The notes under the pieces are model-generated. The model searched no databases and was not told where the DNA came from. It worked only from the letters and a program-made list of their open reading frames with translations. DNA of 64,000 bases, taken from the NCBI RefSeq assembly GCF_988242995.1, contig NZ_OZ547043.1. One strand, written 5' to 3'. Positions 4,233-41,000 of this stretch are shown piece by piece (positions within the stretch are counted from its first letter, which is position 1; each line of letters starts with the position of its first letter). Position numbers and translations under genes: made by a program.

Positions 4233-4248
4233 ATATTGCCAATAAAAA

Positions 4249-5489: not shown

Positions 5490-5498
5490 GGGGGAGCA

Positions 5499-5840: not shown

Positions 5841-5851
5841 AGGGGGATACA

Positions 5852-6397: not shown

Positions 6398-6448
6398 AAA
6401 GAAAGGAAATGACAGGTGCTGAAAACAGGCTTTTGGGTCTCCGTCATT
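6398..6448. terminator. Stem-loop (aaaggaaatgac ... gtcatttccttt) followed by T-rich tract
   Basis: 12-bp inverted repeat read directly, after the alpA-like gene. Confidence 0.4.
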
Positions 6449-6687
6449 TCCTTTCTCATTTTTATCTAAAAGTAAGCATCGAGGCCACCCCAAATGCTTA
6501 TAGAGGTTATTGTGTCACTATGCGTACTGTTCAGGATTTAAAGTAGCAAGACATCTAGTTGCTTGCAGTTTTGGCGAATGATGTGAGGTTCTCTATAACA
6601 GATAATGTAACAAGTTACTGATATATTCTGTTATGGTTGACTTTAAATTTTGTTGCTCCTTCAATGAATTATTGAGGGGTAAAAATT

Positions 6688-6713
6688 AGGCGTGATAAGA
6701 ATCGATCACGCCT
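6688..6713 (-). terminator. Rho-independent terminator for the 438-aa gene
   Basis: aggcgtgat/atcacgcct 9-bp stem immediately 3' of the minus-strand stop, followed on that strand by AATTTTTA. Confidence 0.45.
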
Positions 6714-6718
6714 ATTGT

Positions 6719-8035
6719 TTATCTTGAAGAAATTTTAGGCAGGCTTTTTAAAAATAAATCTTTATTTCTACTTGCATCAGTTAAAAGTGTTAGGAATATT
6801 TTATCTGTAGGAGTGCATGTGCTCTTGTTTAACAGTAATTCACCAAGTTTCTGTAATCGAGAGAATTGCCCATCCTCTTGGATTCTGTGACGAAGTGTAC
6901 TATCATTTTTAATAACATCAACAAATGCAGAAACCATGTTAATATCAAAGTGTTCAAACATTTCCAATATTAAAGGTGCAGCCCCATTTGAATAAAAATT
7001 CTTCCTTCCATACTGATAGCTGAAACCACGATGGCCAACATAAGTTTTTGTAATGGCTGAAACAAATTCAACAATATTATCTTCAGGGACGAAACTCGAG
7101 AATGGTAATAATTGGGTTACGATTTTTTCCTCTTCTGACCAATTATCTAAAGACTCGGTGAGTTTATTAATGAGAGGCTCAATAATAACTTTTCGGGATG
7201 CAGGGCTAATATACATCAGTCCATCTACCAATAGTATGAATTGTTGTGCCTTCTCTATCTTATTGTTGTTTCCTGAAACTAAATACTTGTCAAATTGTTG
7301 GCCGACTTTACGTCGGTCGTCTTTTGAAAGTAATGTCCATAAAATAGGTGCGCAAAATTCAATGTTGTTTCTGAGTTCACTTGATATATTGGATGAGCAG
7401 TATGTGCCAAAAAAACGAGAGGATAATTCACTGATATAAATTGCAGGTAGATCTGAAAAGGCTTGCTTAACTGCCAGACTATTTTTATTAAATGTTGCCG
7501 AATCCATTTCTGAAAGATATGTAGTTATATCTATGATGGCTGGTGGAAACTCTTTAGAAAGAACGTATTTATTACAATCATTAATCAGGTTCACTACTTT
7601 GATTAAATCAGGGTCGCTACTTTGTGGATGTCCACCAAATAGATTCCTGGTTTCTCTAGCTTGTTGTAATAGTTTCTGACCTTCTCGATCGATAACTCCT
7701 ATTTTAAATGCTCCATCTATTAAATCAAAGTCGCTCACATAATCCTGAAAATCTTCATACGTTTTAATTTCTTTTTTTTGTTTACACTCTTTGTTGAATA
7801 GATCTAGGCTACGATGAATTATCTTTTGACGTAAATCATCAACTACAGCATTCCAGTAAGCAGTGATGGCACTTCTATAACCTTTTACAGGAAGAACTCT
7901 TATTGCTTCTGAAATATATGGGCAGTCAACTACATCATGCCTCACAGTTGAGAGCGCAGTTTGTAACAATGTAACTTCTGTAGAGTCTAGTGGAGTTGGC
8001 TGCACTAAATGAGAACTTATCTCTGTACCCTTCAT
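6719..8035 (-). CDS. 438-aa hypothetical protein with N-terminal HEPN-like Rx5H motif (R130-N-L-F-G-G-H136); candidate abortive-infection/defence protein
   Basis: Long ORF on the opposite strand in a visibly AT-rich 2-kb block with its own upstream region and terminator; no similarity to phage structural or housekeeping proteins that I recognise. Confidence 0.5.
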   Translation of the reverse strand: MKGTEISSHLVQPTPLDSTEVTLLQTALSTVRHDVVDCPYISEAIRVLPVKGYRSAITAYWNAVVDDLRQKIIHRSLDLFNKECKQKKEIKTYEDFQDYVSDFDLIDGAFKIGVIDREGQKLLQQARETRNLFGGHPQSSDPDLIKVVNLINDCNKYVLSKEFPPAIIDITTYLSEMDSATFNKNSLAVKQAFSDLPAIYISELSSRFFGTYCSSNISSELRNNIEFCAPILWTLLSKDDRRKVGQQFDKYLVSGNNNKIEKAQQFILLVDGLMYISPASRKVIIEPLINKLTESLDNWSEEEKIVTQLLPFSSFVPEDNIVEFVSAITKTYVGHRGFSYQYGRKNFYSNGAAPLILEMFEHFDINMVSAFVDVIKNDSTLRHRIQEDGQFSRLQKLGELLLNKSTCTPTDKIFLTLLTDASRNKDLFLKSLPKISSR

Positions 8036-8391
8036 TTCAGGATTTTCCTATTCTTTTCCATTTTTCTACTCTATTGAATTTGAAAAAGATATCAAGTTCG
8101 TTCTTGCCAGTTTTAAGTGGAAAATTTGATGTTACCTTATTGAGATAAGGCAGTTCTCTATAACCTATTGTTATTAATTATTTTTATTTTTTTCCAATTC
8201 AGATGTTTAGGGCTAAGAAGTTAAGTGAGAGTTCACAGCAAAACTGCTTCTAGTTCCTCACCGAGGAGCAAAAGGTTAAGACAGCGTACTTTGTATTGCA
8301 CAATGTATTGCAGAACCTTCTTTCGAAAGCTACAACAATCAATTTTATATTGAAAATTCAATCATATCCTTTCGATATTGACTCATATAAC

Positions 8392-9179
8392 CCAAGCATG
8401 AGGTGAATCCGCAGATGACCCTGCGTCGCCTGCCGGATGAAGATCCGCAGAATCTGGCGGACCCGGCTTACCGCCGCCGTCGCATCATTATGCAGAACAT
8501 GCGTGACGAAGAGCTGGCCATTGCCCAGGTCGAAGAGATGCAGGCAGTTTCTGCCGTGCTTAAGGGCAAATACACCATGACCGGTGAAGCTTTCGATCCG
8601 GTTGAGGTGGATATGGGCCGCAGTGCGGCCAACAACATCACGCAGTCCGGCGGCACGGAGTGGAGCAAGCGTGACAAGTCCACGTATGACCCGACCGACG
8701 ATATCGAAGCCTACGCGCTGAACGCCAGCGGAGTGGTGAATATCATCGTGTTTGATCCGAAAGGCTGGGTGCTGTTCCGTTCCTTCAAAGCCGTCAAGGA
8801 GAAGCTGGATACTCGTCGCGGCTCTCATTCCGAGCTGGAGACAGCGGTGAAAGACCTGGGCAAAGCGGTGTCCTACAAGGGGATGTATGGCGATGTGGCC
8901 ATCGTCGTGTATTCCGGACAGTACGTGGAAAACGGCGTCAAAAAGAACTTCCTGCCGGACAACACGATGGTGCTGGGGAACACTCAGGCACGCGGTCTGC
9001 GCACCTATGGCTGCATTCAGGATGCGGACGCACAGCGCGAAGGCATTAACGCCTCTGCCCGTTACCCGAAAAACTGGGTGACCACCGGCGATCCGGCGCG
9101 TGAGTTCACCATGATTCAGTCAGCACCGCTGATGCTGCTGGCTGATCCTGATGAGTTCGTGTCTGTACAACTGGCGTAA
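8392..9179 (+). pseudogene. E: Major capsid gene E, 5'-truncated (about the first 96 codons missing)
   Basis: Translation from ...PKHEVNPQMTLRRLPDEDPQNLADPAYRRRR... to ...DPDEFVSVQLA is near-identical to lambda gpE residues about 97-341; upstream sequence is unrelated AT-rich DNA. Confidence 0.85.
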
Positions 9180-9181
9180 TC

Positions 9182-18204: not shown

Positions 18205-21200
18205 ATGGGTAAAGGCAGCAGTAAGGGGCATACCCCGCGCGAAGCGAAGGACAACCTGAAGTCCACGCAGCTGCTGAGTGTGATCGATGCCATCAGCGAA
18301 GGGCCGGTTGAAGGTCCGGTGGATGGATTAAAAAGCGTGCTGCTGAACAGTACGCCGGTGCTGGACAGTGAGGGGAATACCAATATATCCGGCGTCACGG
18401 TGGTGTTCCGGGCCGGTGAGCAGGAGCAGACTCCGCCGGAGGGATTTGAATCCTCCGGTTCCGAGACGGTGCTGGGTACGGAAGTGAAATATGACACGCC
18501 GATCACCCGCACCATCACGTCGGCAAACATCGACCGTCTGCGCTTTACCTTCGGTGTGCAGGCACTGGTGGAAACCACCTCAAAGGGGGACAGGAATCCA
18601 TCGGAAGTCCGCCTGCTGGTTCAGATACAACGTAACGGTGGCTGGGTGACGGAAAAAGACATCACCATTAAGGGTAAAACCACCTCGCAGTATCTGGCCT
18701 CAGTGGTGGTGGATAACCTGCCGCCGCGCCCGTTTAATATCCGGATGCGCAGGATGACGCCGGACAGCACCACAGACCAGCTGCAGAACAAAACGCTCTG
18801 GTCGTCATACACCGAAATCATCGATGTGAAACAGTGCTACCCGAACACGGCACTGGTCGGCGTGCAGGTGGACTCGGAGCAGTTCGGCAGCCAGCAGGTG
18901 AGCCGTAATTATCATCTGCGCGGGCGTATTCTGCAGGTGCCGTCGAACTATAACCCGCAGACGCGGCAATACAGCGGTATCTGGGACGGGACGTTTAAAC
19001 CGGCATACAGCAACAACATGGCCTGGTGTCTGTGGGATATGCTGACCCATCCGCGCTACGGCATGGGGAAGCGTCTCGGTGCGGCGGATGTGGACAAATG
19101 GGCGCTGTATGTCATCGGCCAGAATTGCGACCAGTCGGTGCCGGATGGCTTTGGTGGCACGGAGCCGCGCATCACCTGTAATGCCTGGCTGACCACGCAG
19201 CGCAAGGCGTGGGATGTGCTCAGTGATTTCTGCTCGGCGATGCGCTGTATGCCGGTATGGAACGGGCAGACGCTGACGTTCGTGCAGGACCGGCCATCGG
19301 ATAAGGTGTGGACCTATAACCGCAGTAATGTGGTGATGCCGGATGATGGCGCGCCGTTCCGCTACAGCTTCAGCGCCCTGAAGGACCGTCATAATGCCGT
19401 TGAGGTGAACTGGATTGACCCGGATAACGGCTGGGAGACGGCGACAGAGCTTGTGGAGGACACGCAGGCCATTGCCCGTTACGGTCGTAACGTCACGAAG
19501 ATGGATGCCTTTGGCTGTACCAGCCGGGGGCAGGCACACCGCGCCGGGCTGTGGCTGATTAAAACAGAACTGCTGGAAACGCAGACCGTGGATTTCAGCG
19601 TCGGCGCAGAAGGGCTTCGCCATGTACCGGGTGATGTTATTGAAATCTGCGATGATGACTATGCGGGGATCAGCATTGGCGGGCGCGTGCTGGCGGTGAA
19701 CAGCCAGACCCGGACGCTGACGCTCGACCGTGAAATCACGCTGCCATCCTCCGGTACCACGCTGATAAGCCTGGTTGACGGGCAGGGGAGTCCGGTCAGC
19801 GTGGAGGTTCAGTCCGTCACCGACGGCGTGAAGGTGAAAGTGAGTCGGGTTCCTGACGGCGTTGCCGAATACAGCGTGTGGGGGCTGAAGCTGCCGACGC
19901 TGCGCCAGCGCCTGTTCCGCTGTGTGAGTATCCGTGAGAACGATGACGGCACGTATGCCATCACCGCCGTGCAGCATGTACCGGAAAAAGAAGCCATCGT
20001 GGATAACGGGGCGCACTTTGACGGCGACCAGAGCGGCACGGTGAATGGTGTCACGCCGCCAGCGGTGCAGCACCTGACCGCCGAAGTCACCGCAGACAGC
20101 GGGGAATATCAGGTGCTGGCGCGATGGGACACGCCGAAGGTGGTGAAGGGCGTGAGCTTCCTGCTTCGCCTTACCGTGGCAGCGGACGACGGCAGTGAGC
20201 GGCTGGTCAGCATGGCCCGGACGACGGAAACCACATACCGCTTCAGGCAACTGGCGCTGGGGAACTACAGGCTGACAGTCCGGGCGGTAAATGCGTGGGG
20301 GCAGCAGGGCGATCCGGCGTCGGTATCGTTCCGGATTGCCGCACCGGCAGCACCGTCGAGGATTGAGCTGACGCCGGGCTATTTTCAGATAACCGCCACG
20401 CCGCATCTTGCCGTTTATGACCCGACGGTACAGTTTGAGTTCTGGTTCTCGGAAAATCGGATTGCGGATATCAGGCAGGTTGAAACCAGCGCGCGTTATC
20501 TTGGCACGGCGCTGTACTGGATAGCCGCCAGTATCAATATCAAACCGGGCCATGATTATTATTTTTACGTTCGCAGTGTGAACACCGTCGGCAAATCGAC
20601 ATTCGTGGAGGCTGTCGGTCGGGTGAGCGATGATGCGGAAGGTTACCTGGATTTTTTCAAAGGCAAGATAACCGAATCCCATCTCGGCAAGGAGCTGCTG
20701 GAAAAAGTCGAGCTGACGGAGGATAACGCCAGCAGACTGGAGGAGTTTTCGAAAGAGTGGAAGGACGCCAACGATAAGTGGAATGCCATGTGGGCTGTCA
20801 AAATTGAGCAGACCAAAGACGGCAAACATTATGTCGCGGGTATTGGCCTCAGCATGGAGGACACGGAGGAAGGCAAACTGAGCCAGTTCCTGGTTGCCGC
20901 TAACCGTATCGCATTTATTGACCCGGCAAACGGGAATGAAACGCCGATGTTTGTGGCGCAGGGCAATCAGATATTCATGAACGAAGTGTTCCTGAAATAT
21001 CTGACGGCTCCCACCATTACCAGCGGCGGTAATCCTCCGGCATTTTCCCTGACACCGGACGGGCGGCTGACGGCGAAAAATGCCGATATCAGCGGTAACG
21101 TGAATGCGAACTCCGGGACGCTCAACAACGTCACGATTAACGAGAACTGCCGGGTTCTGGGAAAACTGTCCGCGAACCAGATTGAAGGCGATCTCGTTAA

Positions 21201-21600
21201 AACAGTGGGCAAAGCTTTCCCCCGTGACTCCCGGGCACCGGAGCGGTGGCCATCAGGGACCATTACCGTCAGGGTTTATGACGATCAGCCGTTTGACCGG
21301 CAAATTGTTATTCCGGCGGTGGCATTCAGTGGCGCTAAGCATGAGAGAGAGCATACTGATATTTACTCCTCATGCCGTCTGATAGTGCGGAAAAACGGTG
21401 CTGAAATTTATAACCGTACCGCGCTGGATAATACGCTGATTTACAGTGGCGTTATTGATATGCCTGCCGGTCACGGTCACATGACACTGGAGTTTTCGGT
21501 GTCAGCATGGCTGGTAAATGGCTGGTATCCCACAGCAAGTATCAGCGATTTGCTGGTTGTTGTGATGAAGAAAGCCACTGCAGGCATCACGATTAGCTGA
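18205..21600 (+). CDS. J: Central tail fibre / host specificity protein J
   Basis: 1131-aa ORF matching lambda gpJ (lambda J is 1132 aa). Confidence 0.9.
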
Positions 21601-21618: not shown

Positions 21619-21644
21619 GGGCACCAGAAATGGTGCCTTTTTTA
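21619..21644 (+). terminator. Rho-independent terminator after J (ggcacc...ggtgcc + TTTTTT)
   Basis: Read directly from sequence. Confidence 0.5.
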
Positions 21645-21667: not shown

Positions 21668-22267
21668 ATGCGTAAATTATGTGCTGTTATTCTGTCCGCA
21701 GTAGTCTGGCTGGTTGCCGCTGGTACGCCAGCGAGCGCAGCAGAGCATCAGTCCACACTAAGCGCCGGGTATCTTCAGACCCATACTGATATGCCAGGCA
21801 GTGATGACCTGAAGGGCATTAACGTGAAATACCGTTATGAATTTACGGACATGCTGGGGCTGGTGACGTCATTCAGTTATGCCAATGCCAAAGATGAGCA
21901 AAGAACGCATTACAGCGATACCCGCTGGCATGAAGATTCAGTGCGTAACCGCTGGTTCAGCATGATGGCGGGGCCATCTGTACGCGTGAATGAATGGTTC
22001 AGTGCTTATGCGATGGCAGGTGTGGCTTACAGCCGTGTTTCGACGTTCTCCGGGGATTATCTCCGCGTAACTGACAACAAGGGGAAAACGCACGATGTGC
22101 TGACCGGAAGTGATGACGATCGCCACAGCAACACGTCTCTGGCGTGGGGAGCTGGCGTGCAGTTTAACCCGACCGAATCCGTGGCCATTGATATTGCTTA
22201 TGAAGGCTCCGGCAGTGGCGACTGGCGCACTGACGGTTTCATCGTGGGTGTCGGTTATAAGTTCTGA
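21668..22267 (+). CDS. lom: Outer membrane protein Lom (Ail/Lom family)
   Basis: 199-aa ORF with signal peptide; matches lambda Lom. Confidence 0.85.
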   Translation: MRKLCAVILSAVVWLVAAGTPASAAEHQSTLSAGYLQTHTDMPGSDDLKGINVKYRYEFTDMLGLVTSFSYANAKDEQRTHYSDTRWHEDSVRNRWFSMMAGPSVRVNEWFSAYAMAGVAYSRVSTFSGDYLRVTDNKGKTHDVLTGSDDDRHSNTSLAWGAGVQFNPTESVAIDIAYEGSGSGDWRTDGFIVGVGYKF

Positions 22268-22293
22268 TTAGCCAGGTAACACAGTGTTATGAC

Positions 22294-22321
22294 AGCCCGC
22301 CGGTTCAGGCGGGCTTTTTTG
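22294..22321 (+). terminator. Rho-independent terminator after lom (gcccgcc...ggcgggc + TTTTTT)
   Basis: Read directly from sequence. Confidence 0.55.
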
Positions 22322-22325
22322 TGGA

Positions 22326-24722
22326 GTGGATATGGCAGCAGTAAAAATCTCAGGTGTGCTGAAAGATGGTGCGGGAAAACCAATACAGAACTGCACTATT
22401 CAACTGAAGGCAAAGCGTAACAGCACCACGGTACTGGTGAACACGGTGGCTTCTGAAAATCCGGATGAAGCCGGACGTTACAGCATGGATGTTGAGTATG
22501 GCCAGTACAGCGTCACCCTGCTGGTTGAAGGTTTTCCGCCTTCACATGCCGGGACCATTACCGTCTATGAAGGCTCCAGACCAGGTACGCTGAATGATTT
22601 TCTCGGTGCCATGACGGAAGATGATGTCATGCCGGAGGCATTGCGTCGTTTTGAGGCAATGGTGGAAGAAGCGGCACACAACGCTGAAGCCACCTTTCAG
22701 AGCGCAGCGGCGGCAAAGAAATCCGAAGCTGCTGCGGCATCATCGAAGAACGCGGCGAAAAGCTCAGAAACGAATGCAGCTAACAGCGCACAGGCGGCAG
22801 CGGCCTCACAGACTGCATCGGCAAACTCCGCGACAGCAGCCCAAAAATCAGAAGCCAACGCGAAAAATAGCGAAACAGCCGCAAAGACGAGCGAAACCAA
22901 CGCGAAGTCCAGCCAGACGGCAGCGAAAACCAGCGAAACGAATGCCAAAACCAGTGAAACTGCGGCGAAAAGCAGTCAGGCTGCAGCAGCCGAAAGCGAG
23001 AGTGCTGCAGCCGGTTCTGCGACTTCAGCAGCTGGATCAGCAACTGCTGCGGCTAACAGCCAGAAAGCAGCGAAGACGAGCGAAACTAACGCAAAGTCCA
23101 GCCAGACGGCAGCGAAGACCAGCGAAACGAATGCCAAAGCCAGCGAAACTGCGGCGAAAAACAGTCAGGATGCAGCGGCCCAAAGCGAGAGTGCCGCAGC
23201 TGGTTCTGCAAGTGCGGCGGCTTCTTCTGCCACTGCATCAGCCAACAGTCAAAAAGCTGCAAAAACCAGTGAAACCAACGCAAAGGCGAGCGAGACTGCG
23301 GCGGCGAACTCGGCGCAAGCATCGGCAGCAAGCCAGACAGCAGCTAAAGCAAGTGAAGACGCAGCCAGAGAGTATGCAAGCCAGGCAGCGGAGCCGTATA
23401 AACAAGTTTTGCAGCCGTTGCCCGATGTGTGGATACCGTTTAATGATTCACTGGATATGATTACGGGCTTTTCGCCATCATATAAAAAAATTGTTATTGG
23501 TGACGATGAAATAACGATGCCTGGCGACAAGATTGTTAAGTTTAAACGTGCATCAACGGCTACATATGTCAATAAATCCGGGGAACTGAAAATTGTAGCA
23601 ATCGACGAACCACGATTTGAAAAAGATGGTTTACTGATTGAAGGCCAACGAAGCAATTCATTTGCAGATTCTAATAATCCGTCGTTATGGAATAAAGCCG
23701 CACAATTGAATATAACCAATGGCAAAGATGAATTTGGTTTTACCTATGGTCTTATTAATGTTGTAGCCGAAACAAGCACTACCGGACGCGCTACATTTAT
23801 TTCAACTGGATATCCAAGATCAATGCCAGCAAAGGCAGGGGAATCTCTTACAATATCCTTCCGAGTTAAAAAAGTTGCTGGTGATGGGGTTCTGACAGTA
23901 TATCCGAGGATTGCTTATGTAAATGATGATGGCTCTAGTAATACTCTTTCTTCGAATGCCTATATAAATGCGGAAACGGGCGAAGTTTTAGGAACTCCTG
24001 CAGGCGGAAGCTCGACGAAAGTATATACTAAAATTGAATCCAATGGATGGTTGTTTGTATCTTTGACTTATAAAACCGCAGAAGACAAAACATTTTATGG
24101 TCGAATTGAAGTTGGTGCACATAAACGAGATATACAGATTGGTGATCAGTGGATGATAACGACACCGCAATTTGAAGTTGGTAGCAGTGCTTCTTCTTTT
24201 ATTATTTCTGGATCTGCGACAACGACAAGAGCGAGTGATTTAGTTACAATCCCGATCAAAAACAATATCTACAATTTACCGCTTACTGTAATGTGCGAAA
24301 CTAATCTTAATTGGGAATGGGATTCTCCGCCAAATGCCGCACCTAGAATAATGGATTTTACGGGTCAAAAAGCGGGGCAGGCCATAATTTATGGTCTACG
24401 TGGTGGGACTGCGGTTGATACTGGATCGCCCTATGTTGATATGGGTGATGGCGCTACAAGAATTAATAAGTATGTAAAAACAACAAATCGAAAGTTTATC
24501 TCTGGCTTTAGGTGTAAAGAAAATGGAGATACTCAAGCGTTTTGTAATTCTGTTTTTTCATCGTCTGCAAGGACAGATTATATTCATGTAGCACCAACTG
24601 CAACGATAAGATTTGGTGGGCAAACCAGTACGGGTGAGCGTCATATATTCGGACACATCCGAAATTTCAGGATTTGGCATAAAGCGTTAACTGATGCACA
24701 AATGGGGGAGAGTATTAAATGA
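22326..24722 (+). CDS. stf: Side tail fibre protein, mosaic: lambda Stf-like N-terminus, Ala/Ser/Thr-rich tandem-repeat shaft, unrelated AT-rich C-terminal domain
   Basis: N-terminus MDMAAVKISGVLKDGAGKPIQNCTIQLKAKRNSTTVLVNTV... matches lambda Stf; C-terminal about 440 aa (from ...QPLPDVWIPFNDSLD) has no lambda Stf similarity and lower GC. Confidence 0.8.
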   Translation: MDMAAVKISGVLKDGAGKPIQNCTIQLKAKRNSTTVLVNTVASENPDEAGRYSMDVEYGQYSVTLLVEGFPPSHAGTITVYEGSRPGTLNDFLGAMTEDDVMPEALRRFEAMVEEAAHNAEATFQSAAAAKKSEAAAASSKNAAKSSETNAANSAQAAAASQTASANSATAAQKSEANAKNSETAAKTSETNAKSSQTAAKTSETNAKTSETAAKSSQAAAAESESAAAGSATSAAGSATAAANSQKAAKTSETNAKSSQTAAKTSETNAKASETAAKNSQDAAAQSESAAAGSASAAASSATASANSQKAAKTSETNAKASETAAANSAQASAASQTAAKASEDAAREYASQAAEPYKQVLQPLPDVWIPFNDSLDMITGFSPSYKKIVIGDDEITMPGDKIVKFKRASTATYVNKSGELKIVAIDEPRFEKDGLLIEGQRSNSFADSNNPSLWNKAAQLNITNGKDEFGFTYGLINVVAETSTTGRATFISTGYPRSMPAKAGESLTISFRVKKVAGDGVLTVYPRIAYVNDDGSSNTLSSNAYINAETGEVLGTPAGGSSTKVYTKIESNGWLFVSLTYKTAEDKTFYGRIEVGAHKRDIQIGDQWMITTPQFEVGSSASSFIISGSATTTRASDLVTIPIKNNIYNLPLTVMCETNLNWEWDSPPNAAPRIMDFTGQKAGQAIIYGLRGGTAVDTGSPYVDMGDGATRINKYVKTTNRKFISGFRCKENGDTQAFCNSVFSSSARTDYIHVAPTATIRFGGQTSTGERHIFGHIRNFRIWHKALTDAQMGESIK
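22883..23300 (+). repeat. About 189-bp tandem repeat (2 copies plus a partial third) inside stf
   Basis: Near-identical DNA blocks starting aagacgagcgaaac...; protein repeat AAKTSETNAKSSQTAAKTSETNAK... Confidence 0.7.
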
Positions 24723-25000
24723 AAGATTTAACACTAAAATTTTCTGACAGGGCCGACTTTTCGGCCTTTATGGATAGCATTGGCTATTATGATGACGAGT
24801 CGATGCAGGATGATATTCTCATTGACGTGATAGGTAACGTGTACAAAGAAACCGGAGAACTGAATGAAGATGGCGAACCGGTATGTGTTAAGGAAGACGG
24901 ATATTTTGTAAACGTGCGCATCATTAATGATGTGAAAACACCGTCAATATTCGATGAATACGTGGTTGCTGTTGAGCATCAACTTCGTGGCTGGATGTGA
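24719..25000 (+). CDS. Hypothetical acidic protein (93 aa) downstream of stf
   Basis: ATGA overlap with stf stop; no recognisable family. Confidence 0.4.
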   Translation: MKDLTLKFSDRADFSAFMDSIGYYDDESMQDDILIDVIGNVYKETGELNEDGEPVCVKEDGYFVNVRIINDVKTPSIFDEYVVAVEHQLRGWM

Positions 25001-25009
25001 GGAAGAAAA

Positions 25010-25699
25010 ATGGCTACATCGACAGTAATTCCGGGAGACATTACCACGCTAAAGGGAGATGTCAGTAAAGCTAAGGAAGATATTTCCTCAATTAACGGAA
25101 AAGTATCAACGCTTCAGACTGATATGACCAGTGCAAAGCAGGATATCAGCACCAGATACACAAAAACTGAAGTTGATAATAAGCTGAAAAACAAAGTGGA
25201 AGTGAACGATCTGGAAAGTGGTCGTTATGGCGGAGATTTTTACCCGCTGACTGGCCGTGAAGCGTTTTATTTATGGGGATTGGGCACAACTACAGCGGCG
25301 GCAAATCTTTATCTTAATCCTGACCCTGCAATTTCGTCTGTGCTGCGGTCAACATCGTCTATCCGCTATAAACATTCAGTAGAGACGATAGATTCAGAGC
25401 ACGCCGATCTCATTTTCAAGATGCGCCCTGTATGGTACAGGTCGCAATGCGAAAATGACAGGCGCGGTTGGGGATTCTATGGATTGATTGCCGAGGAAGT
25501 AGGAGAAATTGCCCCTCAGTTTGTACACTGGCGACCAGCTAACGAGAATGATGCTCCTGAAGCTATTTCCAGCAATGGCCTTGTTGCCGAAGGTGTAATG
25601 TACGAACGTCTGGTTGTTCCACTGATTCACCATATCCAGAAACTGACTGAAAGAGTTGAAGAACTTGAGTCAGAATTAAAGTTGTTATCAACTTCCTGA
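25010..25699 (+). CDS. Short tail-fibre-like protein: N-terminal coiled coil plus C-terminal intramolecular-chaperone (peptidase S74-like) domain
   Basis: 229-aa ORF; C-terminal segment SSIRYKHSVETIDSEHADLIFKMRPVWYR...GFYGLIAEEVGEIAPQFV...GLVAEGVMYERLVVPLIHHIQKLTERVEELE resembles autoproteolytic chaperone domains of phage fibres and endosialidases. Confidence 0.55.
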   Translation: MATSTVIPGDITTLKGDVSKAKEDISSINGKVSTLQTDMTSAKQDISTRYTKTEVDNKLKNKVEVNDLESGRYGGDFYPLTGREAFYLWGLGTTTAAANLYLNPDPAISSVLRSTSSIRYKHSVETIDSEHADLIFKMRPVWYRSQCENDRRGWGFYGLIAEEVGEIAPQFVHWRPANENDAPEAISSNGLVAEGVMYERLVVPLIHHIQKLTERVEELESELKLLSTS

Positions 25700-25724
25700 A
25701 GCGATATTGGATAAAGGAGGAGTA

Positions 25725-26018
25725 ATGGATATAACACCTTTCCTTCACGCGCTTTGTGCTGTGGCTGCGCAGGTACTGGTTGGTCTTTTTACCGGGAACT
25801 GGGCTTACGGGGCGATAGCCGGTTGTACGTTCTTCATTGCGCGTGAACACACCCAGGCAGAATATCGCTGGATTGAAATGTTCGGGCATGGCAAGCGAAT
25901 GAATATGCCGTGGTGGGGCGGTTTTGATCCGCGAGCGTGGGATGTGGCAAGCCTGATGGATTTTGCTGTGCCGGTGGTGGCGTGTCTGCTGGTCTGGCTG
26001 TTGGTTAATCGTGGGTGA
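25725..26018 (+). CDS. Small predicted membrane protein (97 aa, two hydrophobic segments); possible moron or exclusion protein
   Basis: Strong AAGGAGG RBS before MDITPF...; hydrophobic stretches read from translation. Confidence 0.45.
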   Translation: MDITPFLHALCAVAAQVLVGLFTGNWAYGAIAGCTFFIAREHTQAEYRWIEMFGHGKRMNMPWWGGFDPRAWDVASLMDFAVPVVACLLVWLLVNRG

Positions 26019-26689
26019 AAAAAGGTGAGCTGTATATGCAACGGAGGAAGAAACCCCGTTGCTGGAAGCCTGGAAAAAGTATCGGGTGCTGCTAAACCGT
26101 GTGGACACTTCCGTAGCACCAGATATCGAGTGGCTTATTCAACCATAATAAACAGTATGTATATCATAGGTTATTAATTGTGAGTTTTTTCGGTGTGTTA
26201 TTTGTTTGATGTTATGATTTTGCGCCCCAAAAGGTTGTTTAGATGTATTTTATCAATTGATTTTCAATATCGTTTAATAAAGAAAAATTAAGCAAGTTGG
26301 ATGTTGGTTTTTTGTTAATTGAATGGTTCTAATAATGTTTTTTTACTGTTGTTGAATGTGACTTGATAAGAAATGCAAGTAAAAATGATACTCTTTTTAT
26401 TTTAAATTCAAACGGTTGACATATATATAGCAAGAGGTTTCAGGTGCGTTGTAGTGAGTTTATGTTAATAAAAAGCATAGTAAGCGTTGAAAAATGTAAC
26501 TTTGAAATACGTTAGAATAAAAAACAATATACATATAATAATTTAATCTTAAATGAAATTTATTAAAAATTGCAAACTATAATTTTGTGTATAAAAATAT
26601 AAATGCACATCATCCTGATTATGATTGTGTATTTAATTGGTTGTTATTTGACTACTATCAACTTGTTTTAATTTTATGATAGGTGCAAG

Positions 26690-27439
26690 ATGGATTATGT
26701 TTGCTCCGTAGTTTTCATCTGTCAATCATTTGATTTAATTATAAACAGGAGAGTTATCTCGTTCAAAAAAAATTCATTGTTTATTGTAAGCGACAAAATT
26801 AGAAGAGAGTTACCAGTATGCCCCTCTAAACTAAGAATTGTTGATATAGATAAGAAAACATGTTTATCCTTTTTTATCGACGTGAATAATGAGTTGCCTG
26901 GCAAATTTACTCTTGATAAGAATGGCTATATTGCTGAAGAGGAACCTCCATTATCGCTTGTTTTTTCTCTGTTTGAAGGGATTAAAATAGCAGACTCACA
27001 CTCCCTTTGGTTAAAAGAAAGACTATGTATATCCTTACTTGCCATGTTCAAAAAACGCGAAAGTGTAAATTCATTTATACTAACAAATATAAATACATTT
27101 ACCTGTAAAATTACTGGAATAATCAGTTTTAATATTGAGCGGCAATGGCATTTAAAAGATATTGCGGAATTGATTTATACGAGTGAAAGTTTAATAAAAA
27201 AAAGATTAAGGGATGAAGGAACGTCATTTACTGAAATATTGAGAGATACTAGGATGAGGTATGCAAAAAAACTCATAACTTCAAACTCTTATTCTATCAA
27301 TGTCGTAGCCCAGAAATGTGGCTATAACAGTGCTTCATATTTCATATGTGCATTTAAAGATTATTATGGTGTCACGCCATCTCATTATTTTGAGAAAATA
27401 ATCGGCGTCACAGATGGAATAAACAAAACAATTGACTGA
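26690..27439 (+). CDS. appY: AraC-family transcriptional activator AppY
   Basis: 249-aa ORF matching E. coli AppY; AT-rich upstream region. Confidence 0.85.
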
Positions 27440-27645
27440 TAATGTTTATTACAAGTTGTCTACATGTTAATTATAATATTATACAGCGTGTTTTTTGATG
27501 TGATATTCTGGAACCATTAATTTGTAATTGGGTTGCTGTCGCCTATTTTATACACACTATAATTGATGGTTTTCTATGTGATTTAGTTAATAACCTTCTG
27601 GGTTTATTTTAAGGGGTAATTGTTACATTGAAATGGCTAGTTATT

Positions 27646-27670
27646 CCCCGGGGCGATTTTCACCTCGGGG
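27646..27670. terminator. Bidirectional stem-loop (ccccgggg...cgggg) between convergent appY and ompT
   Basis: Read directly from sequence. Confidence 0.35.
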
Positions 27671-27688
27671 AAATTTTAGTTGGCGTTC

Positions 27689-28642
27689 TTAAAATGTGTA
27701 CTTAAGACCAGCAGTAGTGATGAAGTTATAGTTTTCTATGCCTGCACCATTTTTGCTGTAGTCTGAAGTGTTATCATTGTGATCATAAAGTGAAGTATTA
27801 CCTTTTTTATTCGTAACCCGATTCCATGCGCCTTCAACATAAACTTTTGCGTTAGGTGTTACGTAATAACCTGCATTGACTGCAACAGAATAGTAATTTT
27901 GGTCTTTGACTTTACTGCGATAAGTGATTCTTTTTCCTGGGTCATAGTGCTCATCGTTATCAGATGCTTCCACCCAGCCGCTGTATTTAAATGTGCCACC
28001 TAGCTCAAAATCTTCATAACGATAACTTCCAGTCAAGCCAATGTAGGGCATTTTAAAACGTTGTTTGTAGCCGATTGCTCTTTCTCCATTCGGGAAGGAG
28101 CCGATATCATCTCTGAATCCCTCCTCAGAACTGTAGATATAGGAACCACCTCTGGCTGTAAAGCTATAACGGCTTTCCTGATATCCGGCCATGAGTCCCA
28201 GGCGGTAATTGGGTTCGTTGAGGAGCCAGCCTTTGATATTCAGATCAAATTCGTTGGCATAATTGAGTTGTGTATCAGGGTGCCTACTTTCATCTGTCCA
28301 GGTTCCGGGGTTACTGGAATCCATCCAGTCCTGATCGACCATATTGCCACCTCGGCTGCCGAGAGTAGTCCAGCCCGCAGCCCCAATAGATATCTGGGGC
28401 ATCAAATCCCAATTAATTGCACCTTTAATAATTGCAGCGTTATTGAATTTCCAGTCGAGTTGACTGACTTTTCGGCCTCCTTCTTCAGCTAGATAAACGC
28501 GCTCTTTTGTTTTTCCGCTCAGAGTTCCAAGACTAATGTCCGCATTTATGTTGTCAGGAGTAAACGATATAGTCTCGGTAGAAGCAAAAGAGCTGATCGC
28601 AATAGGGGTTGTCAGGACTATTCCCAGAAGTTTCGCCCGCAT
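27689..28642 (-). CDS. ompT: Outer membrane protease OmpT (omptin)
   Basis: 317-aa ORF matching E. coli OmpT. Confidence 0.9.
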   Translation of the reverse strand: MRAKLLGIVLTTPIAISSFASTETISFTPDNINADISLGTLSGKTKERVYLAEEGGRKVSQLDWKFNNAAIIKGAINWDLMPQISIGAAGWTTLGSRGGNMVDQDWMDSSNPGTWTDESRHPDTQLNYANEFDLNIKGWLLNEPNYRLGLMAGYQESRYSFTARGGSYIYSSEEGFRDDIGSFPNGERAIGYKQRFKMPYIGLTGSYRYEDFELGGTFKYSGWVEASDNDEHYDPGKRITYRSKVKDQNYYSVAVNAGYYVTPNAKVYVEGAWNRVTNKKGNTSLYDHNDNTSDYSKNGAGIENYNFITTAGLKYTF

Positions 28643-36186: not shown

Positions 36187-36383
36187 ACAAAAACCTTACA
36201 TTAACGCTGGTTATGTTTAGGGTGGCGTATATTAAGGTTTTTTATGAATTGTGACAGCTTTTTACCATTAATAGGTATGACTATTGCGGCACGTTATTTT
36301 TACACTGGTTATAAAAGTTGCCGTTTGCGTAGAATGTAGACAAAAGCGTGGTGTCAAGGAGGGGAGGTTAACGCAGGGCAAGA

Positions 36384-37520
36384 TTACGAAAGCCCGCTCC
36401 CCGCAAGGACTGACGCGAGATAGTTTCTGCCCATGGCTGCTTTTCGCATCTTACGTCTTAACCCTGCCTTGAATATCTTATCATTCGTTAAAATATTAAT
36501 AGCGATGTGCCGTATCCCTGAATATAATTCTGCGGCGTTTCCTCTTCTTATTTTGCAGTCGTCTTCATTCATTACCACGTCCAGACGCCAGTGCAGCTTA
36601 TTCTCCACGTGCCAGTGGTTTCGGATTGCTGTGGCGAACTTCTCTGCGGTTAAATCAGCAGAACTGATATAATATCTGACCGTCATTTCTGGCTCTTTCT
36701 TTTGTTCTGCTATTATTGACCGAAAGGAGACTGCCACACATAATTTCTTCAGTCCTTTCCATTCAAACGTGAAATCAATAAGTTCATCAGGGACATCGCA
36801 AACAATATGAAGACGGATTTCTTCTCTGCCGTGACTCTTTTCACTAATGGCGTAACTGTCATGCTCTGGATTATTTAATTCTTTCAGTGGAAATTTTTCC
36901 TCAAAGGCTTTATTAAGCCGCCCCTGGTTTCCTTTTACAGCGAATAAATAATCACCGCCCTGTTTTTGTATCTTCTCTGCAATATCTTTCTGGCAACCCA
37001 TCGCATCAGTTGTGATGATTTTTCCTTTAATATACAGCATGTTAAGAAGTTCTGGGATAGCTGTAATCTCATTAGATTTCTCATCCGTTCTGATCTGTCC
37101 GATGACCAGACTGTGCATTGTTGAGAACGCACTAATGACATGAATCGCTCCCCTGCGGCGACTCTTGTCATAAGAATGCCGGAGTGTTTTTCCATCGATT
37201 GCAATAACGTCTTTATCATCTGAAGTATGGCAATCTCGCATCCAGTTAATAAAGCACTCGTGAAATTTTGAAGGACTGATACAGGATACAACTCTGGCGA
37301 TGGTATCGTGAACAGGAATACCATTTTCAAAATCACCATATTGTTTTAAAAAATCGAGATGTGTTTCCCCAAAATCCTCTATATCTTCCCAACCTTCTGC
37401 ACCAGAAATAACGGCACAAATAGTCAACAGTAGAATATCCGATAATTTATGTTCCACTTTCCAGGCTTGTCTGTAATCGGGGATAATAGAAATATGCTCC
37501 ATCAATTTTTTAAGTTCCAT
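36384..37520 (-). CDS. ISAs1-family transposase (H-repeat-associated protein), apparently full length
   Basis: 378-aa ORF matching E. coli H-rpt proteins (YhhI/YbfD type) associated with Rhs loci. Confidence 0.8.
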
Positions 37521-37786
37521 TTTGTTCTCCTTAATTATGTAAGGAGTATTTGATCATGTATAAGCAATAAAAACAGCTTTAGGTAATGAGGAATATCTCA
37601 ATTTTTAAACATAAAATGCGAATTATTTAGTACAAAAAAGCAGCGTTACGTGATCTTTCCCTGGTGTACTTCTGATGATCTTTCCCTGGGTTAAACAGGT
37701 GGTGAAGGGAATGAAGAATGGGATATCCGGCGTATTACGCGAGGTATAAAAATAAAAGCCGGGAGATTGTCACTCCCGGCAACATA

Positions 37787-38068
37787 TTATTTTTTTATTT
37801 CATTATATCTGATAAAAAAAGTATTTAGTGCATCATGTTCATCTTGTGAGAACAATAAAATAATTTTATCCCATGAATGTCCTGTTACTCCATAATAGTC
37901 TTCAATATAAGATTGAAGCCTTATTAATATCTCAATATTGACGATTTCTTTTGGCTCTCTCATTTGCCATCCATCCAGGAAAGCTTTTAACGCCGATATG
38001 GTATGCCTGCTTAAATATAAAGCTGGTCTTTTTTCTATCATATCAATCAGTTTAACAATATCATTCAT
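37787..38068 (-). CDS. Putative Rhs immunity protein (93 aa)
   Basis: Small AT-rich ORF starting 2 nt after the rhs stop on the same strand; position typical for cognate immunity. Confidence 0.55.
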   Translation of the reverse strand: MNDIVKLIDMIEKRPALYLSRHTISALKAFLDGWQMREPKEIVNIEILIRLQSYIEDYYGVTGHSWDKIILLFSQDEHDALNTFFIRYNEIKK

Positions 38069-38070
38069 AA

Positions 38071-41000
38071 TTAAAACCTTGATGGAGTAATGGTGTATTC
38101 GCCAGGAGAGTATATATCATTCAGCCAATCTTCATACTTTATACCAGAAGGATTCATATTATCAAAAACTGTATCACCTACTTTTATTGCTTCATGATGA
38201 CCATTAGTTGCTATATTTTTACCTATTCTATCACTCCATATATTGCCAAAGGCGCCTTGTTTATTTTTAGTTTCGAGTATGAGATGCTCACCATTTACCC
38301 CAGCTTGTTGCATTTTACTTTTTAACGCTGCGGCAAATTTATCGCATTGAAAAAGCTGTTTAAACTTATCACTTATTGTTGTTGCAAGATCCCTTGTTTT
38401 TGCGATATCGCAAATGGTTAATCCTAATGGATCAATATAACCAAGGGGATTATGAACATATGCATAATTGTTTATCCCGCCTCTCAGCCCTATCGGATCA
38501 CTCACCAGGTACATCCCGGTTTCCGGCTCGTAATACCGGAACCGGTTATAGCACAGCCCGGATTCCGCATCCTGCCACTGTCCTGCATACAGCAGGCCGG
38601 GGTCGGCTTCCGGGTCCAGCTCCCCACGCGGGTCCGGGTAGCCGGTGTCTGCGGGCAGGCTGAGTGCCAGCCCCCACAGGCTGGTCTGTCCCGGTCGCCA
38701 GACGGTTTTACCTTCACTGTTAAAGAGCATCAGCGGCCGGCCCGTCAGGTCGCTCACCGCATGATTCGTCCGCGTCACCCACTGCGGGGCCACGGACGGA
38801 TGCGCCTGCCGTACCCGGCTGCACTGCTGGCTTATCAGCTCAAAGCCGTTAAACACCAGGTGCCGCACACTGTACAGTTTATCATCGCGGTATTCCCGGA
38901 TTTCCGCAATACTGTCGCCATCCCACAGGTACGTAAAACGGATTTTCTTCCGGTCGCAGCGTTTCTCTGTTCGTCTGCCGCTGGCATCGTGGCGGTATTC
39001 CCACTGTTCACCCTGTGCGCTGCAATACCCGGTCAGCTGGTCCCGGCTGTCCCACCGGAACCGCTCTGTTTCCGGGCGGTAACCGTCACGGTGTCTGGTG
39101 CGGCTGACCATCCGGCCTGCGGCGTCATAGTCATACTGCGTGTTTCCGGCCTGTTTCAGCCGGTGGCCTCCGGCATACTGGTCAGTCTCTTCACTTATCC
39201 GGTGCCTGCCCGCAGACTGCGCCTTCAGGTAGCCGCAGCTGTCATAGCCATAAGTCTCATCGCCTTCGCCATAGCCCAGCCCGGTGCCTGAGGCTGTCAC
39301 CGCCGTGACCTGGCCGTTCCGGTCCAGCCGGTACTCCCGCCGTGTTTCCCGTCCGTAGTCTTCCCGGCTGGTGACAGCCGACACATTACCCGCGCTGTCG
39401 TAACGGTACTCCCGCACCAGTGAGGGGAGCAGCCCGCCCCATGTGGCTTCCGCCGGGAAAAATCCGGCGCGCTGGCTGACAGCCTGACCGGCTGCATTCC
39501 AGCCCTGCTCACAGGCAAAACCCCGGTTACTGTGCCGGAGCACTTCACGTCCTGCCTCATCACGGCTGAACGTCAGCGTCTCATCCCCCGGCAGGATAAC
39601 CTCCGTCAGTTCTCCGGCGGCGTTGTAGCGGTAGGTGGTTTTCAGCAGGGATTCACCGGGGTGTCTGTCGCGTTCATCTTCCGGTGGCAGGATACAGCGG
39701 ATGACGGTGTGTTCATCGGGGTGGTGGTATTCAATGGCCCGTCGGCCCTGAGTGGTGACATTCACCCGGCCGCGTTCGTCATAGCCGGTGCGCTGTGATG
39801 TGCCGTCCGGGCTGAAGATACCCGTCAGCCTGCCGGATTTGTCATACGCATACTGCGTTTTGCCTTCCGGCGTGATGACTTCTGCCAGGCGGCCTGCGGC
39901 GTCCCGGCTGTAGAGGATAGTTTCCTCCAGGCCGTTGACCCTGGCGGTACACAGGCCATCGGCGTCATAGCGGTAACGCCAGACCACGCCGCCCCAGTCA
40001 CGCTCTTCCGTCACCCGGCCGCAGTTATCCAGAACATAAAGATATGACTCACCCTGCGGATTGATGACTTCTGTCAGTTGCAGCGTGTCTTTATCGTAGC
40101 GGTACTGCCAGCGGTGGCCTTCACCGTCCGTTCGCGCCACCGGCAAATCAAACGGGCCGTACTCCATTGTCCAGACAACGCCATTGCCGTCCGTCCAGGC
40201 CAGCAGGTTGCCGTGGCGGTCGTTGCGGAATCCTTCCGCGCCGGTTCCAGTGCGCTCAAGGCCGCTCAGTTTATGGTGCTGCTGCCACTGCAACCGCACT
40301 GACTGACCGCCGGGGCCGCGCATCTTCACCGGCAGGTCGTGACCACTGTATTTGGTGTGGTGTTCGCGGCCCATCACGTCGGTGAGTGTTTCCGGCCGGT
40401 TGTGGCGGTCGTACTCTATGCCCAGACGCCGTTCATCCTGGCGGAATATCCCCGACAGCAGCCCCTGAGCGGTGTATGCCAGCCGGGTCTCTTCGCCCTG
40501 TGGCGACACCTGACTTACCGGCAGGCCGCGTTCATCACACTGCTGTGTCCACGTCTGCCCGGCAGGGTCGGTGATGTTGCTGAGCAGGCCGCGCTCATCA
40601 TAGCGGTACAGCCACTCCGCGCCGTCTGCCGCCGTGTAACGGCTTAACTGACCGAGTGCGGCGTTGTCTTCAAATTTCTCCACCCGCCCGGCAGGGGAGT
40701 GGCGGGCCAGCAGGTGATGGAATTCATCCCATTCATACGTGGTGGTACTGCCGTCCGGCGCGTCTTCCCGCAGGATATTGCCGTCAGGATCATAGTAATA
40801 ACGGTGAATGCCCTTGCCGTCCGTCACGGTGGTGCAGCCGTCCCCATAGTCCAGCGTGGCGTTGTAATAGCCCTCCGCCCCGGTGACGGTCACGCACCGG
40901 CCCTGTGTATCGTAGGTGAAACGGCTCCACGTCTGGTCGTTATCGGACCAGCGGATGATCCGGTCCGCATCGTCGTACTCATAAAACAGGTGGTAGTCCA

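Follow-up and report, generated by a model that had tools for sequence, protein, structure and literature searches.

Stf of a lambda-like Escherichia coli prophage is a mosaic side tail fibre with a rare variant of a known, often exchanged tip module

Our analysis revealed that stf, in the stretch of 64,000 nucleotides examined here (contig NZ_OZ547043.1 of RefSeq assembly GCF_988242995.1; hereafter the window), is the mosaic side (lateral) tail fibre gene of a lambda-like E. coli prophage. As a version of a host-recognition module that is known and often exchanged, the gene is ordinary, albeit rare. The unit that has replaced the 3′ end of a lambda-type stf together with tfa is about 2.6 kb long (23391–26037) and encodes the tip of the fibre, orf93, a second fibre protein (fibre2) and orf97; the conservation of the accessory genes and the tfa remnant identify it as a four-gene cassette. 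We consider it probable that the product is a three-layer fibre, in which an N-terminal anchor and a coiled-coil shaft carry an exchanged, glycan-binding jelly-roll tip with a junction for fibre2. The coordinates of all features are collected in Table 1.

Table 1. Features of stf and its neighbourhood (positions in the window)
Feature	Position	Strand	Remarks
Terminator-like hairpin, 3′ of J	21619–21638		
Terminator-like hairpin with a T-run 3′ of it, in the lom–stf interval	22294–22315	+	
stf coding sequence	22332–24722	+	ATG start at 22332, 796 codons
Lambda-type N-terminal tail-attachment domain	22338–22727	+	PF08400; residues 5–134, Pfam E 7e-65
Ala/Ser-rich shaft	22698–23390	+	Residues 125–355; 33 heptads in a single unbroken register
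Higher-order tandem repeat	22869–23303	+	TRF; 189 bp (63 aa, nine heptads), two complete copies plus 57 bp of a third
Conserved neck, onset of the low-GC tip module	23391–23651	+	Residues 356–442
Tip domain D1, predicted variable jelly-roll	23652–24245	+	Residues ~443–640; NF048003 "GTA head spike fiber" match at residues 437–636
Rare allele-specific core between two recent breakpoints	23653–24630	+	
Tip domain D2, predicted LamG-like jelly-roll	24246–24719	+	Residues ~641–798; variable centre (660–759), conserved last 40 residues
orf93	24719–25000	+	PHROG 1361; start overlaps the stf stop (ATGA)
fibre2	25010–25699	+	229 aa; N-terminal peptide, short coiled coil, C-terminal S74 domain
fibre2 conserved N-terminal peptide	25010–25054	+	MATSTVIPGDITTLK; 15 residues, MATxTVIP type
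fibre2 S74 intramolecular-chaperone domain	25355–25525	+	Residues 116–172; PF13884, E 3e-5
orf97	25725–26018	+	PHROG 1443; small hydrophobic protein, 55% GC
tfa 3′ remnant, right edge of the replaced block	26038–26148	+	111 bp; RefSeq pseudogene, 86% identity with the end of tfa in lambda

The longest plus-strand ORF at the locus spans 22326–24722 (798 codons) with GTG as its first codon; the ATG at 22332 is the likely start, as it is preceded by GGAG, agrees with lambda MAVKISG and is also the RefSeq start. The gene order in the window is J, lom and stf, and lom is bracketed by the two terminator-like hairpins. A preceding sequence-only reading had matched the first ~130 residues to lambda Stf. 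This match was confirmed, since 98 of the 117 residues at positions 5–121 (84%) are identical to lambda Stf within the PF08400 domain; the DNA is 83% identical to lambda across 22140–22684. Thus, both the domain and the position 3′ of J and lom are those of a lambda-type Stf. A Pfam search with the whole protein gave no match past residue 134.

The shaft is most likely an alpha-helical coiled coil, presumably trimeric: Ser occupies position 2 in 32 of its 33 heptads and Ala position 6 in 30, and it has low-complexity similarity to the coiled coil of DT57C LtfA (PMC10713586). The 189-bp tandem repeat reported earlier at 22883–23300 was recovered by TRF with a slightly different extent (period 189, 2.3 copies, score 590). 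Copy 1 (22869–23057) and copy 2 (23058–23246) agree at 159 of 189 nucleotides (84%), and the self-identity is 0.62 at a lag of 189, compared with an average of 0.35 for all lags. The same length recurs in independent complete genomes and in phage genomes, which excludes an assembly artefact. The repeat goes back to an old duplication of a nine-heptad segment. The suggestion that it is recombinogenic and length-variable was weakly borne out: phage IdasGreatGrand has exactly one 189-bp unit fewer and lambda-type shafts are 315 bp shorter, but the copies have diverged by 16% and the close relatives sampled are all of the same length. A 279-codon ORF in another frame (22621–23460) and antisense ORFs are also present within the shaft; these look like by-products of stop-poor repetitive sequence.

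The GC content falls from 0.574 in the shaft to 0.402 in the neck and 0.393 in the core, with the switch at ~23400, which corresponds to residue ~360. This drop from 57% to 40% confirms the switch to lower-GC DNA that the sequence-only reading had placed there, and its description of the C-terminal part as unrelated to lambda Stf was likewise upheld: we found no similarity to the C-terminus of lambda orf-401 or to orf-314. The C-terminal part is therefore not the canonical type, homologous to orf-314 or T4 gp37 and accompanied by an intact Tfa gene. Instead, profile matches place the C-terminal 440 residues in a large lateral-tail-fibre tip family (PHROG 1419/5939, NF048003), so that they are not an orphan. 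The NCBIfam model NF048003 matched with 57.7 bits against a cut-off of 36 (E 2e-15), PHROG 1419 matched over the full length (E = 0 over residues 4–797) and PHROG 5939 at E 4e-76, while the PDB sequence search returned the head-spike fibre of the Rhodobacter capsulatus gene transfer agent (RcGTA; 6TB9 chain, E 4e-4). PF13385 (LamG) is on record in homologues of the tip. The tip of Stf itself was recognised solely via NCBIfam, PHROGs, the PDB sequence search and structure prediction.

The family spans lambda-like, T1-like, T5-like and Seuratvirus phages, with homologues of the tip 48–60% identical in 218 phage records and 1,136 matching clusters at 50% identity. Among the listed proteins that align over the whole tip, the tip always forms the C-terminal end. 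It does so in Stf as well, and is followed there by a ~92-aa-type ORF (PHROG 1361) and an S74-domain protein. In a search over 5.8 billion protein sequences, the best match to Stf was 59–60% identical, and no identical protein was found among the matches listed. The neck is the conserved part, with 65–92% protein identity across the lambda-like, T1-like, T5-like and Seuratvirus relatives and ~78–80% DNA identity to virulent phages. The tip was modelled with high confidence, as a monomer, and is predicted to comprise this neck and two concanavalin-A-like jelly-roll domains, D1 and D2; structure comparison of the predicted model gave the jelly-roll beta-sandwich of the concanavalin-A-like/LamG fold.

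Genomes with this tip allele are few, and at least five prophage locations have been involved in its recent movement. Its core was present in nine of 5,426 genomes and was 100% identical in all of them; seven of the nine were examined and carried it at five prophage sites (appY-ompT, prfC, potAB, ydfJ and sitD). Identity in nine genomes at several sites indicates recent transfer. Strain GF131 has a 100% identical stf; its upstream sequence differs, and the window contains an extra 9.7 kb. Among sequenced phages, no DNA match covered the core and the best protein match was 60%, and IMG/VR contained one 10-kb prophage-like contig with the core.

In contrast to this recent movement, the module boundary at residue ~360 is old. 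It is common to ~958 E. coli genomes and to viable lambda-like phages, and T1-like and T5-like phages show ~80% DNA identity from 23370–23410 onward. The recent exchange points are located at 23652 (residue 443) and 24610–24631 (residues 762–769). Comparison with 2G7b, IdasGreatGrand, PhiR49_1, AMSCJX02 and EcPF15 placed breakpoints at 23650–23652, 24610–24631, 25053 and 25705. A second independent cassette is located at 25054–25704. P0002 shares D1 (78%) but not D2 (20%), whereas P0003 shares D2 (77%) but not D1 (26%). These results show that D1, D2 and fibre2 have been swapped independently by homologous recombination at conserved linker segments. Recombination of lambda with prophage stf-tfa regions has been observed experimentally (PMC3945230).

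An orf93-type ORF is conserved 3′ of every fibre of this type examined, and the order of fibre, ~92-aa ORF and S74 protein is kept in 2G7b, PeterMerian, MatMar and SIA3lw. The N-terminal peptide of fibre2 is invariant across these families. At its C-terminus, fibre2 has the Peptidase_S74 domain with the Ser…Lys cleavage motif, in which neither S116 nor K121 varies among the aligned sequences, and self-cleavage is predicted. Pfam and PDB sequence searches with orf93 and orf97 gave nothing usable; orf97 occurs in lambdoid versions of the module and is missing from all three virulent-phage loci examined. The absence of the usual tfa partner, noted earlier, holds for an intact gene 3′ of stf, but the 111-bp remnant of its 3′ end is still there. 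Fibres of this type normally have no tfa; every family examined has the same small ORF and an S74 protein in its place. Likewise, the proposed horizontal swap of a receptor-binding domain stands insofar as the fibre is mosaic and its distal part is of horizontal origin and likely receptor-binding; the replaced unit, however, is the whole four-gene block, and the residue-360 junction is old.

In the three-layer fibre that we favor, the lambda-type domain would anchor the fibre to the tail tip, and the jelly-roll domains would bind surface polysaccharide, either O-antigen or capsule, reversibly. This contact would be the first, host-range-defining step, ahead of the binding of a porin by J, and the variable parts of D1 and D2 would set the glycan specificity. 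Each RcGTA head spike has one fibre subunit, and this fibre binds capsular polysaccharide (PMC7296036, PMC10218006); for the lateral fibres of these siphoviruses, O-antigen is the presumed ligand (PMC8594841, PMC11990801). By this analogy and from the model, the tip family may well use a surface glycan as primary receptor. We found no receptor for any member of the tip family in the literature. JakobBernoulli, the one T1-like phage of the BASEL collection with a proven O16-binding lateral fibre, was also considered; its tip is T5-like with its own chaperone domain, and it therefore gives no direct functional evidence for the tip family.

The tip would fold as compact single-chain domains rather than as an interwoven trimer, and would thus need neither Tfa nor a C-terminal chaperone of its own. 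We propose that the neck, orf93 and the N-terminal peptide of fibre2 form a junction to which a second, short fibre is attached; the co-conservation of the three suggests that fibre2 may physically attach to Stf. After S74 self-cleavage, fibre2 would be only ~115 residues long, so that its role may be that of a helper and not of a receptor-binding branch. More tentatively, and with less than even confidence, we raise a general scheme: a chaperone-independent, single-chain head of two lectin-like domains would be displayed three times at the end of a coiled coil, the neck, orf93 and the MATxTVIP peptide would serve as a universal docking junction, and D1, D2 and fibre2 would reassort independently of one another among temperate lambda-like and virulent T1-, T5- and Seurat-like phages, which would amount to a plug-and-play platform for branched fibres.

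Other readings of the receptor-binding part were weighed against a glycan-binding tip. The tip might bind an outer-membrane protein, since lambda side fibres are reported, in work cited in PMC11990801, to use OmpC, and jelly-rolls of clostridial toxins bind proteins too (SV2-bound entries were among the matches). This is improbable, given that the sole homologue with a tested function binds polysaccharide (PMC10218006), that the extreme allelic diversity of 1,136 clusters at 50% identity fits the diversity of glycans better, and that the fibres of Ur-lambda now appear to recognise the O16 O-antigen (PMC11990801). A tip that cuts O-antigen or capsule as a hydrolase or lyase, like a tailspike, instead of binding it as a passive lectin, seems slightly less probable still: the best fold matches of the model are non-catalytic binding modules, no glycosidase family emerged from the Pfam or NCBIfam searches, and the invariant residues are conserved also in the RcGTA head fibre, which is described as a binding protein only (PMC7296036, PMC10218006). 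We attach just as little credence to a single swap at residue ~360 that put an unrelated orphan domain on lambda Stf and cost it its chaperone partner. The GC drop, the lack of similarity to the lambda C-terminus and the lack of an intact tfa would agree with such an event, but its supposed junction is shared by many genomes and viable phages, the region falls into an already catalogued family whose PHROG profile matches over the full length, conservation of the accessory genes together with the tfa remnant points to a four-gene replacement, and the allele-specific breakpoints at residues 443 and ~765 contradict it.

A further question is the state of the prophage, which has a satellite-like element next to it. 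The major capsid gene is 5′-truncated, no terminase or portal gene was found within the window, and pseudogenes account for two of the nine allele copies, one of them in a prophage with an IS element in its tail genes. From this, stf could be regarded as a decaying, inactive relic of a defective prophage that serves at most as a recombination reservoir. We consider this unlikely, though less so than the readings above, since the frame is intact over 2.4 kb of repeat-rich sequence, the tail genes FI to J are all intact in the closest annotated genome, and the identical cores at several sites speak for recent transfer. Moreover, it bears on expression in this strain and leaves the identity of the protein unchanged.

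The range of O-antigen or capsule types open to a siphovirus is determined by its side fibres, so that the cassettes offer a practical way to predict and re-engineer host range. The points of breakage and rejoining of such cassettes can be read from the locus, namely the neck, the conserved last 40 residues, the 15-residue adaptor peptide and the tfa remnant, and the separate exchange of the two tip domains is useful for the design of chimeric fibres. The tip family, the layout of the locus and its mobility are already known from phage databases and the lateral-tail-fibre literature, so this is no new kind of system, and the tip allele is a rare member of that family.

The branched L-shaped fibres LtfA/LtfB of the T5-like phage DT57C are likewise encoded by tandem genes, the second of which ends in an S74 chaperone domain; their branching, with LtfB as the second branch, has been demonstrated genetically (PMC4728585). 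In SIA3lw, a MATxTVIP-type peptide is fused to a body 44% identical to DT57C LtfB. However, LtfA has a terminal S74 domain of its own and no jelly-roll tip, and no small ORF separates ltfA from ltfB; Stf has no S74 domain by Pfam and no similarity to LtfA outside the low-complexity shaft. The DT57C arrangement, in which the first fibre combines its S74 end with an LtfB docking region and LtfB is related at its N-terminus to phiEco32 gp15, is not found here. The N-terminal peptide of fibre2 was considered as the LtfB docking sequence and rejected, the LtfB N-terminus being unrelated.

RcGTA Rcc01080 (GhsB) is homologous to the end of the neck and to D1 by the NF048003 and 6TB9 matches, and is a binder of capsular polysaccharide (PMC10218006). 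In contrast to Stf, it is borne on the capsid, where a Leu-Gly repeat peptide anchors it as a single chain (PMC7296036), without a coiled-coil shaft or a known LamG-type second domain. Drexlerviridae such as PeterMerian (Bas05 gp31) and MatMar, and T5-like phages such as SIA3lw, share the C-terminal ~440-residue tip at 48–60% identity, followed by the ~92-aa ORF and the S74 protein; these phages are virulent, and their fibres have other N-terminal anchors without PF08400, no orf97 and no tfa remnant. Stf/Tfa of lambda (Ur-lambda) shares the position after J and lom, the PF08400 domain (84% identity over residues 5–121) and the Ala/Ser heptad shaft, whereas here the shaft is 315 bp longer and the distal half and tfa have been replaced, with 111 bp of tfa left. 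The lambda-like phages 2G7b (Nesevirus), Tritos, HannyBb, PhiR49_1 and IdasGreatGrand have the identical four-gene layout followed by tfa fragments, with 91–96% identity up to residue 442 and 90–94% in the linkers. The fibre2 of our locus has the same body as that of PhiR49_1 and IdasGreatGrand, unlike that of 2G7b, and the difference from this group lies in the D1–D2 core, where DNA identity is below 70%.

Our analysis revealed that stf, the side tail fibre gene, is a rare allele combination in a known, widely distributed lateral-tail-fibre tip family; the main value of the locus is a clean map of the recombination points in such fibres. An ORF scan of the window placed the reading frame at 22326-24722 (+). 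The closest annotated genome, E. coli GF131 (RefSeq), is 100% identical across stf and starts at the ATG matching 22332, which is preceded by GGAG and encodes a lambda-like N-terminus, MAAVKISG. The locus occupies the appY-ompT-envY-nfrA position. The window differs from GF131 upstream and holds an extra 9.7 kb further on. Two strong terminator-like hairpins (21619-21638 and 22294-22315) flank lom. This puts stf downstream of a terminator; as in lambda, late-operon antitermination is presumably required for its expression.

The Pfam, repeat, GC and lambda comparisons located every element of the sequence-only reading essentially where it had been placed. The roughly 130 lambda Stf-like N-terminal residues correspond to PF08400 (residues 5-134, E 7e-65), besides which a Pfam search of the whole protein returned only one overlapping weak match. 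Identity to lambda Stf is 98/117 across residues 5-121, then fades to low-complexity similarity, and 22140-22684 is 83% identical to lambda DNA. The proposed switch to lower GC near residue 360 is a drop at about 23400: the shaft has a GC fraction of 0.574, the neck 0.402 and the core (23653-24630) 0.393. The distal half, described as unrelated to lambda Stf, showed no similarity to the C-terminus of lambda orf-401 or to orf-314.

Fibre tip segments and surrounding genes. Identities are to the window protein, among 23 representatives with mutual identity <88%.
Feature	Nucleotides	Stf residues	Remarks
Neck		360-442	65-92% identity
D1 (jelly-roll)		443-619	25-78% identity
Linker		620-659	42-75% identity
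D2 (jelly-roll)		660-759	19-77% identity
C-terminal end		760-798	59-82% identity
J	18205-21600		upstream of stf
lom homologue	21668-22267		between J and stf
orf93	24719-25000		~92 codons; start overlaps stf stop; PHROG 1361
orf97	25725-26018		small hydrophobic protein; 55% GC in ~40-45% GC cassette; PHROG 1443
Icd-like ORF	68-583		P4-like/satellite-like block
P4-family primase	1488-3239		same block
SSB	3783-4232		same block
Lambda-E-like major capsid protein	4236-5489		the block's own
Head decoration protein	5499-5840		same block
AlpA	5852-6235		same block
437-aa unknown protein	6719-8035		same block; minus strand
ISAs1-family transposase	36384-37520		9.7-kb segment
PAAR-Rhs core protein	38071-42735		9.7-kb segment; 1,553 aa
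VgrG	43376-45313		9.7-kb segment

The earlier idea of a horizontal swap of the receptor-binding region was right in spirit, but too simple on four points: which unit was exchanged, how old the residue-360 junction is, whether the tip is an orphan and what the missing tfa means. D1 and D2 are inherited independently of each other: one homologue (P0002) shares 78% identity with the window in D1 but only 20% in D2, while a T1-like phage protein (P0003) shares 77% in D2 but only 26% in D1. Breakpoints against phage 2G7b are sharp, with DNA identity of 96% up to 23652, absent or <71% up to 24630 and 90% over 24631-25053; further on, the alignment is absent over 25054-25704 and 94% identical over 25705-26137. 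Phages IdasGreatGrand and PhiR49_1 have a different core but match the window throughout from 24610, also in the second fibre encoded downstream; strains AMSCJX02 and EcPF15 share the core and have a different second fibre. Furthermore, T1-like and T5-like phages show 78-80% DNA identity to the neck, beginning at 23370-23410, exactly at the GC drop. The breakpoint maps and this common neck DNA show that the residue-360 junction is the old edge of a tip module that several phage families employ; the allele-specific exchanges took place at residue 443 and residues 762-769. Homologous exchange at the conserved linkers is the natural mechanism, since recombination between lambda and prophage stf-tfa was demonstrated experimentally (PMC3945230).

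Of 5,426 complete E. coli genomes, only 9 contain the core, 100% identical each time, and the seven examined have it next to appY-ompT, prfC, potAB, ydfJ and sitD; the same module occurs on one IMG/VR contig. Two of the nine copies are annotated as pseudogenes. In strains AMSCJX02 (L007 4498-5623) and EcPF15 (L008 4507-6348), the annotation splits this allele into several pseudogene fragments, beginning in the repetitive shaft; the frameshifts may be real or may come from sequencing errors in the repeat. In EcPF15, ISEc31 has also inserted into the tail tip genes.

The tip is not an orphan. NCBIfam NF048003 ("phage head spike fiber domain") matched residues 437-636 (57.7 bits, cut-off 36), PHROG 1419 (a 793-position "tail protein" profile) spans the whole protein (E = 0), and PHROG 5939 matched the distal half. 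In tblastn, residues 360-798 matched 218 phage records, 197 with at least 80% query coverage, at 48-60% identity, including T1-like Drexlerviridae, Dhillonvirus, T5-like phages, Seuratvirus JenP1 and the lambda-like 2G7b, Tritos, HannyBb and PhiR63_1. The alignment spans the whole tip, with which the protein ends, in 116 of the 120 homologues listed from the protein database; their N-terminal anchors vary (PF08400, PF03406/PF12571 or none). An exhaustive search matched 1,136 clusters at 50% identity. In a search of 5.8 billion proteins with 23403-24719 the best hit reached 59-60% identity and nothing identical or nearly so appeared, although nine RefSeq genomes encode the same core; the gap may come from a limit in how the word index selects candidates and not from real absence.

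The AlphaFold2 model of residues 360-798 (71 sequences) was all-beta, with a pLDDT of 93.6 and a pTM of 0.90, and the LamG-like jelly-roll PF13385 is recorded in tip homologues. A PDB sequence search matched Rcc01080, the head-spike fibre of the Rhodobacter capsulatus gene transfer agent (E 4e-4); this relative has one chain per spike, is flexible and mediates capsular polysaccharide binding (PMC7296036, PMC10218006). Because GH16-type enzymes have the same fold, the tip could itself be an enzyme, which we consider improbable. We found no member of the Stf tip family whose receptor has been determined by experiment; a T1-like BASEL phage with known O16 use was set aside as functional evidence because its tip differs.

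The shaft contains the reported 189-bp tandem repeat, which Tandem Repeats Finder placed at 22869-23303 (2.3 copies, score 590). Residues 125-355 form 33 heptads in one unbroken register, with Ser at position 2 in 32, Ala at position 6 in 30 and Ala at position 5 in 24, and DNA self-identity, on average 0.35, has peaks of 0.62 at a 189-bp lag and 0.51 at a 21-bp lag. The repeat is thus a nine-heptad duplication inside a longer heptad array. It is old, as the full copies are 16% diverged (159/189 nt and 53/63 aa identical; 15 synonymous and 10 non-synonymous codon differences). The periodicity suggests a trimeric alpha-helical coiled coil, as does the comparison with DT57C LtfA, whose N-terminal coiled coil was visualised by cryo-EM (PMC10713586) and has low-complexity similarity to the shaft. 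In 958 E. coli genomes, 80% or more of the first 1331 nt is present; those aligning over the repeat, taken from the top of the ranking and by even sampling, were colinear in length. The repeat is therefore no assembly artefact and shows no visible instability among close relatives. Between lineages, length does vary, IdasGreatGrand having exactly one 189-bp unit fewer and lambda-type shafts being 315 bp shorter. Long ORFs of up to 279 codons lie within the shaft in another frame (22621-23460, +) and antisense (22697-23725, -), placed similarly to the annotated orf206b of lambda; repetitive sequence with few stops seems to have produced them.

The FI-to-J tail cluster is intact; the lambda-type major capsid gene (8403-9179) is 5'-truncated, so the prophage cannot make its own heads. 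Directly upstream of this gene, within 1-9180, lies a P4-like or satellite-like block, and a capsid-encoding satellite may have recombined with the prophage capsid gene or may use prophage tails. Between nfrB and cusS, the 9.7-kb segment absent from GF131 (36328-46034) resembles an effector island of type VI secretion. Downstream of its copy of the fibre module, phage 2G7b (L003 11041-11299), lambda-like and viable, carries an omptin (ompT) gene, a ybcY-like methyltransferase and tfa fragments. This points to phage cargo as the origin of the appY-ompT end of the DLP12-type locus; in the window the region concerned is 26149-28642, and the 540 bp upstream of appY are only 25% GC.

The sequence-only reading had noted the lack of tfa. 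No intact gene is present; a 111-bp 3' end survives at 26038-26148, 86% identical to lambda and annotated as a pseudogene. This absence is the normal state for fibres with this tip, since in lambda-like, T1-like and T5-like genomes alike two conserved genes follow the fibre instead and lambdoid versions hold only tfa fragments. Single-chain jelly-roll heads, unlike interwoven fibre tips, would not need trimerisation chaperones. Lambdoid modules additionally carry, ahead of the tfa fragments, orf97, which is absent from the three virulent-phage loci examined and could be a lysogen-expressed membrane protein.

The first of the two genes, orf93, is 41-95% identical across the three families, and its model (pLDDT 81.7) had no informative structural neighbour. 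The protein encoded by the second starts with the invariant peptide M(A/V)TxTVIPxDIxxLK, continues with a body whose length varies greatly (229-580 aa) and ends in an S74 intramolecular-chaperone domain. The window has the minimal version, 229 aa, common also in Drexlerviridae, where it is annotated "putative lateral tail fiber chaperone"; it is either a putative branch or a putative helper. The neck, orf93 and the peptide would together form the junction attaching the second fibre. The second protein of SIA3lw shares 44% identity with DT57C LtfB in its body but has a different N-terminus, and LtfB was demonstrated genetically to be the second branch of a branched fibre (PMC4728585). By this analogy, we read the peptide as a probable partner-specific adaptor and the S74 protein as a putative second fibre.
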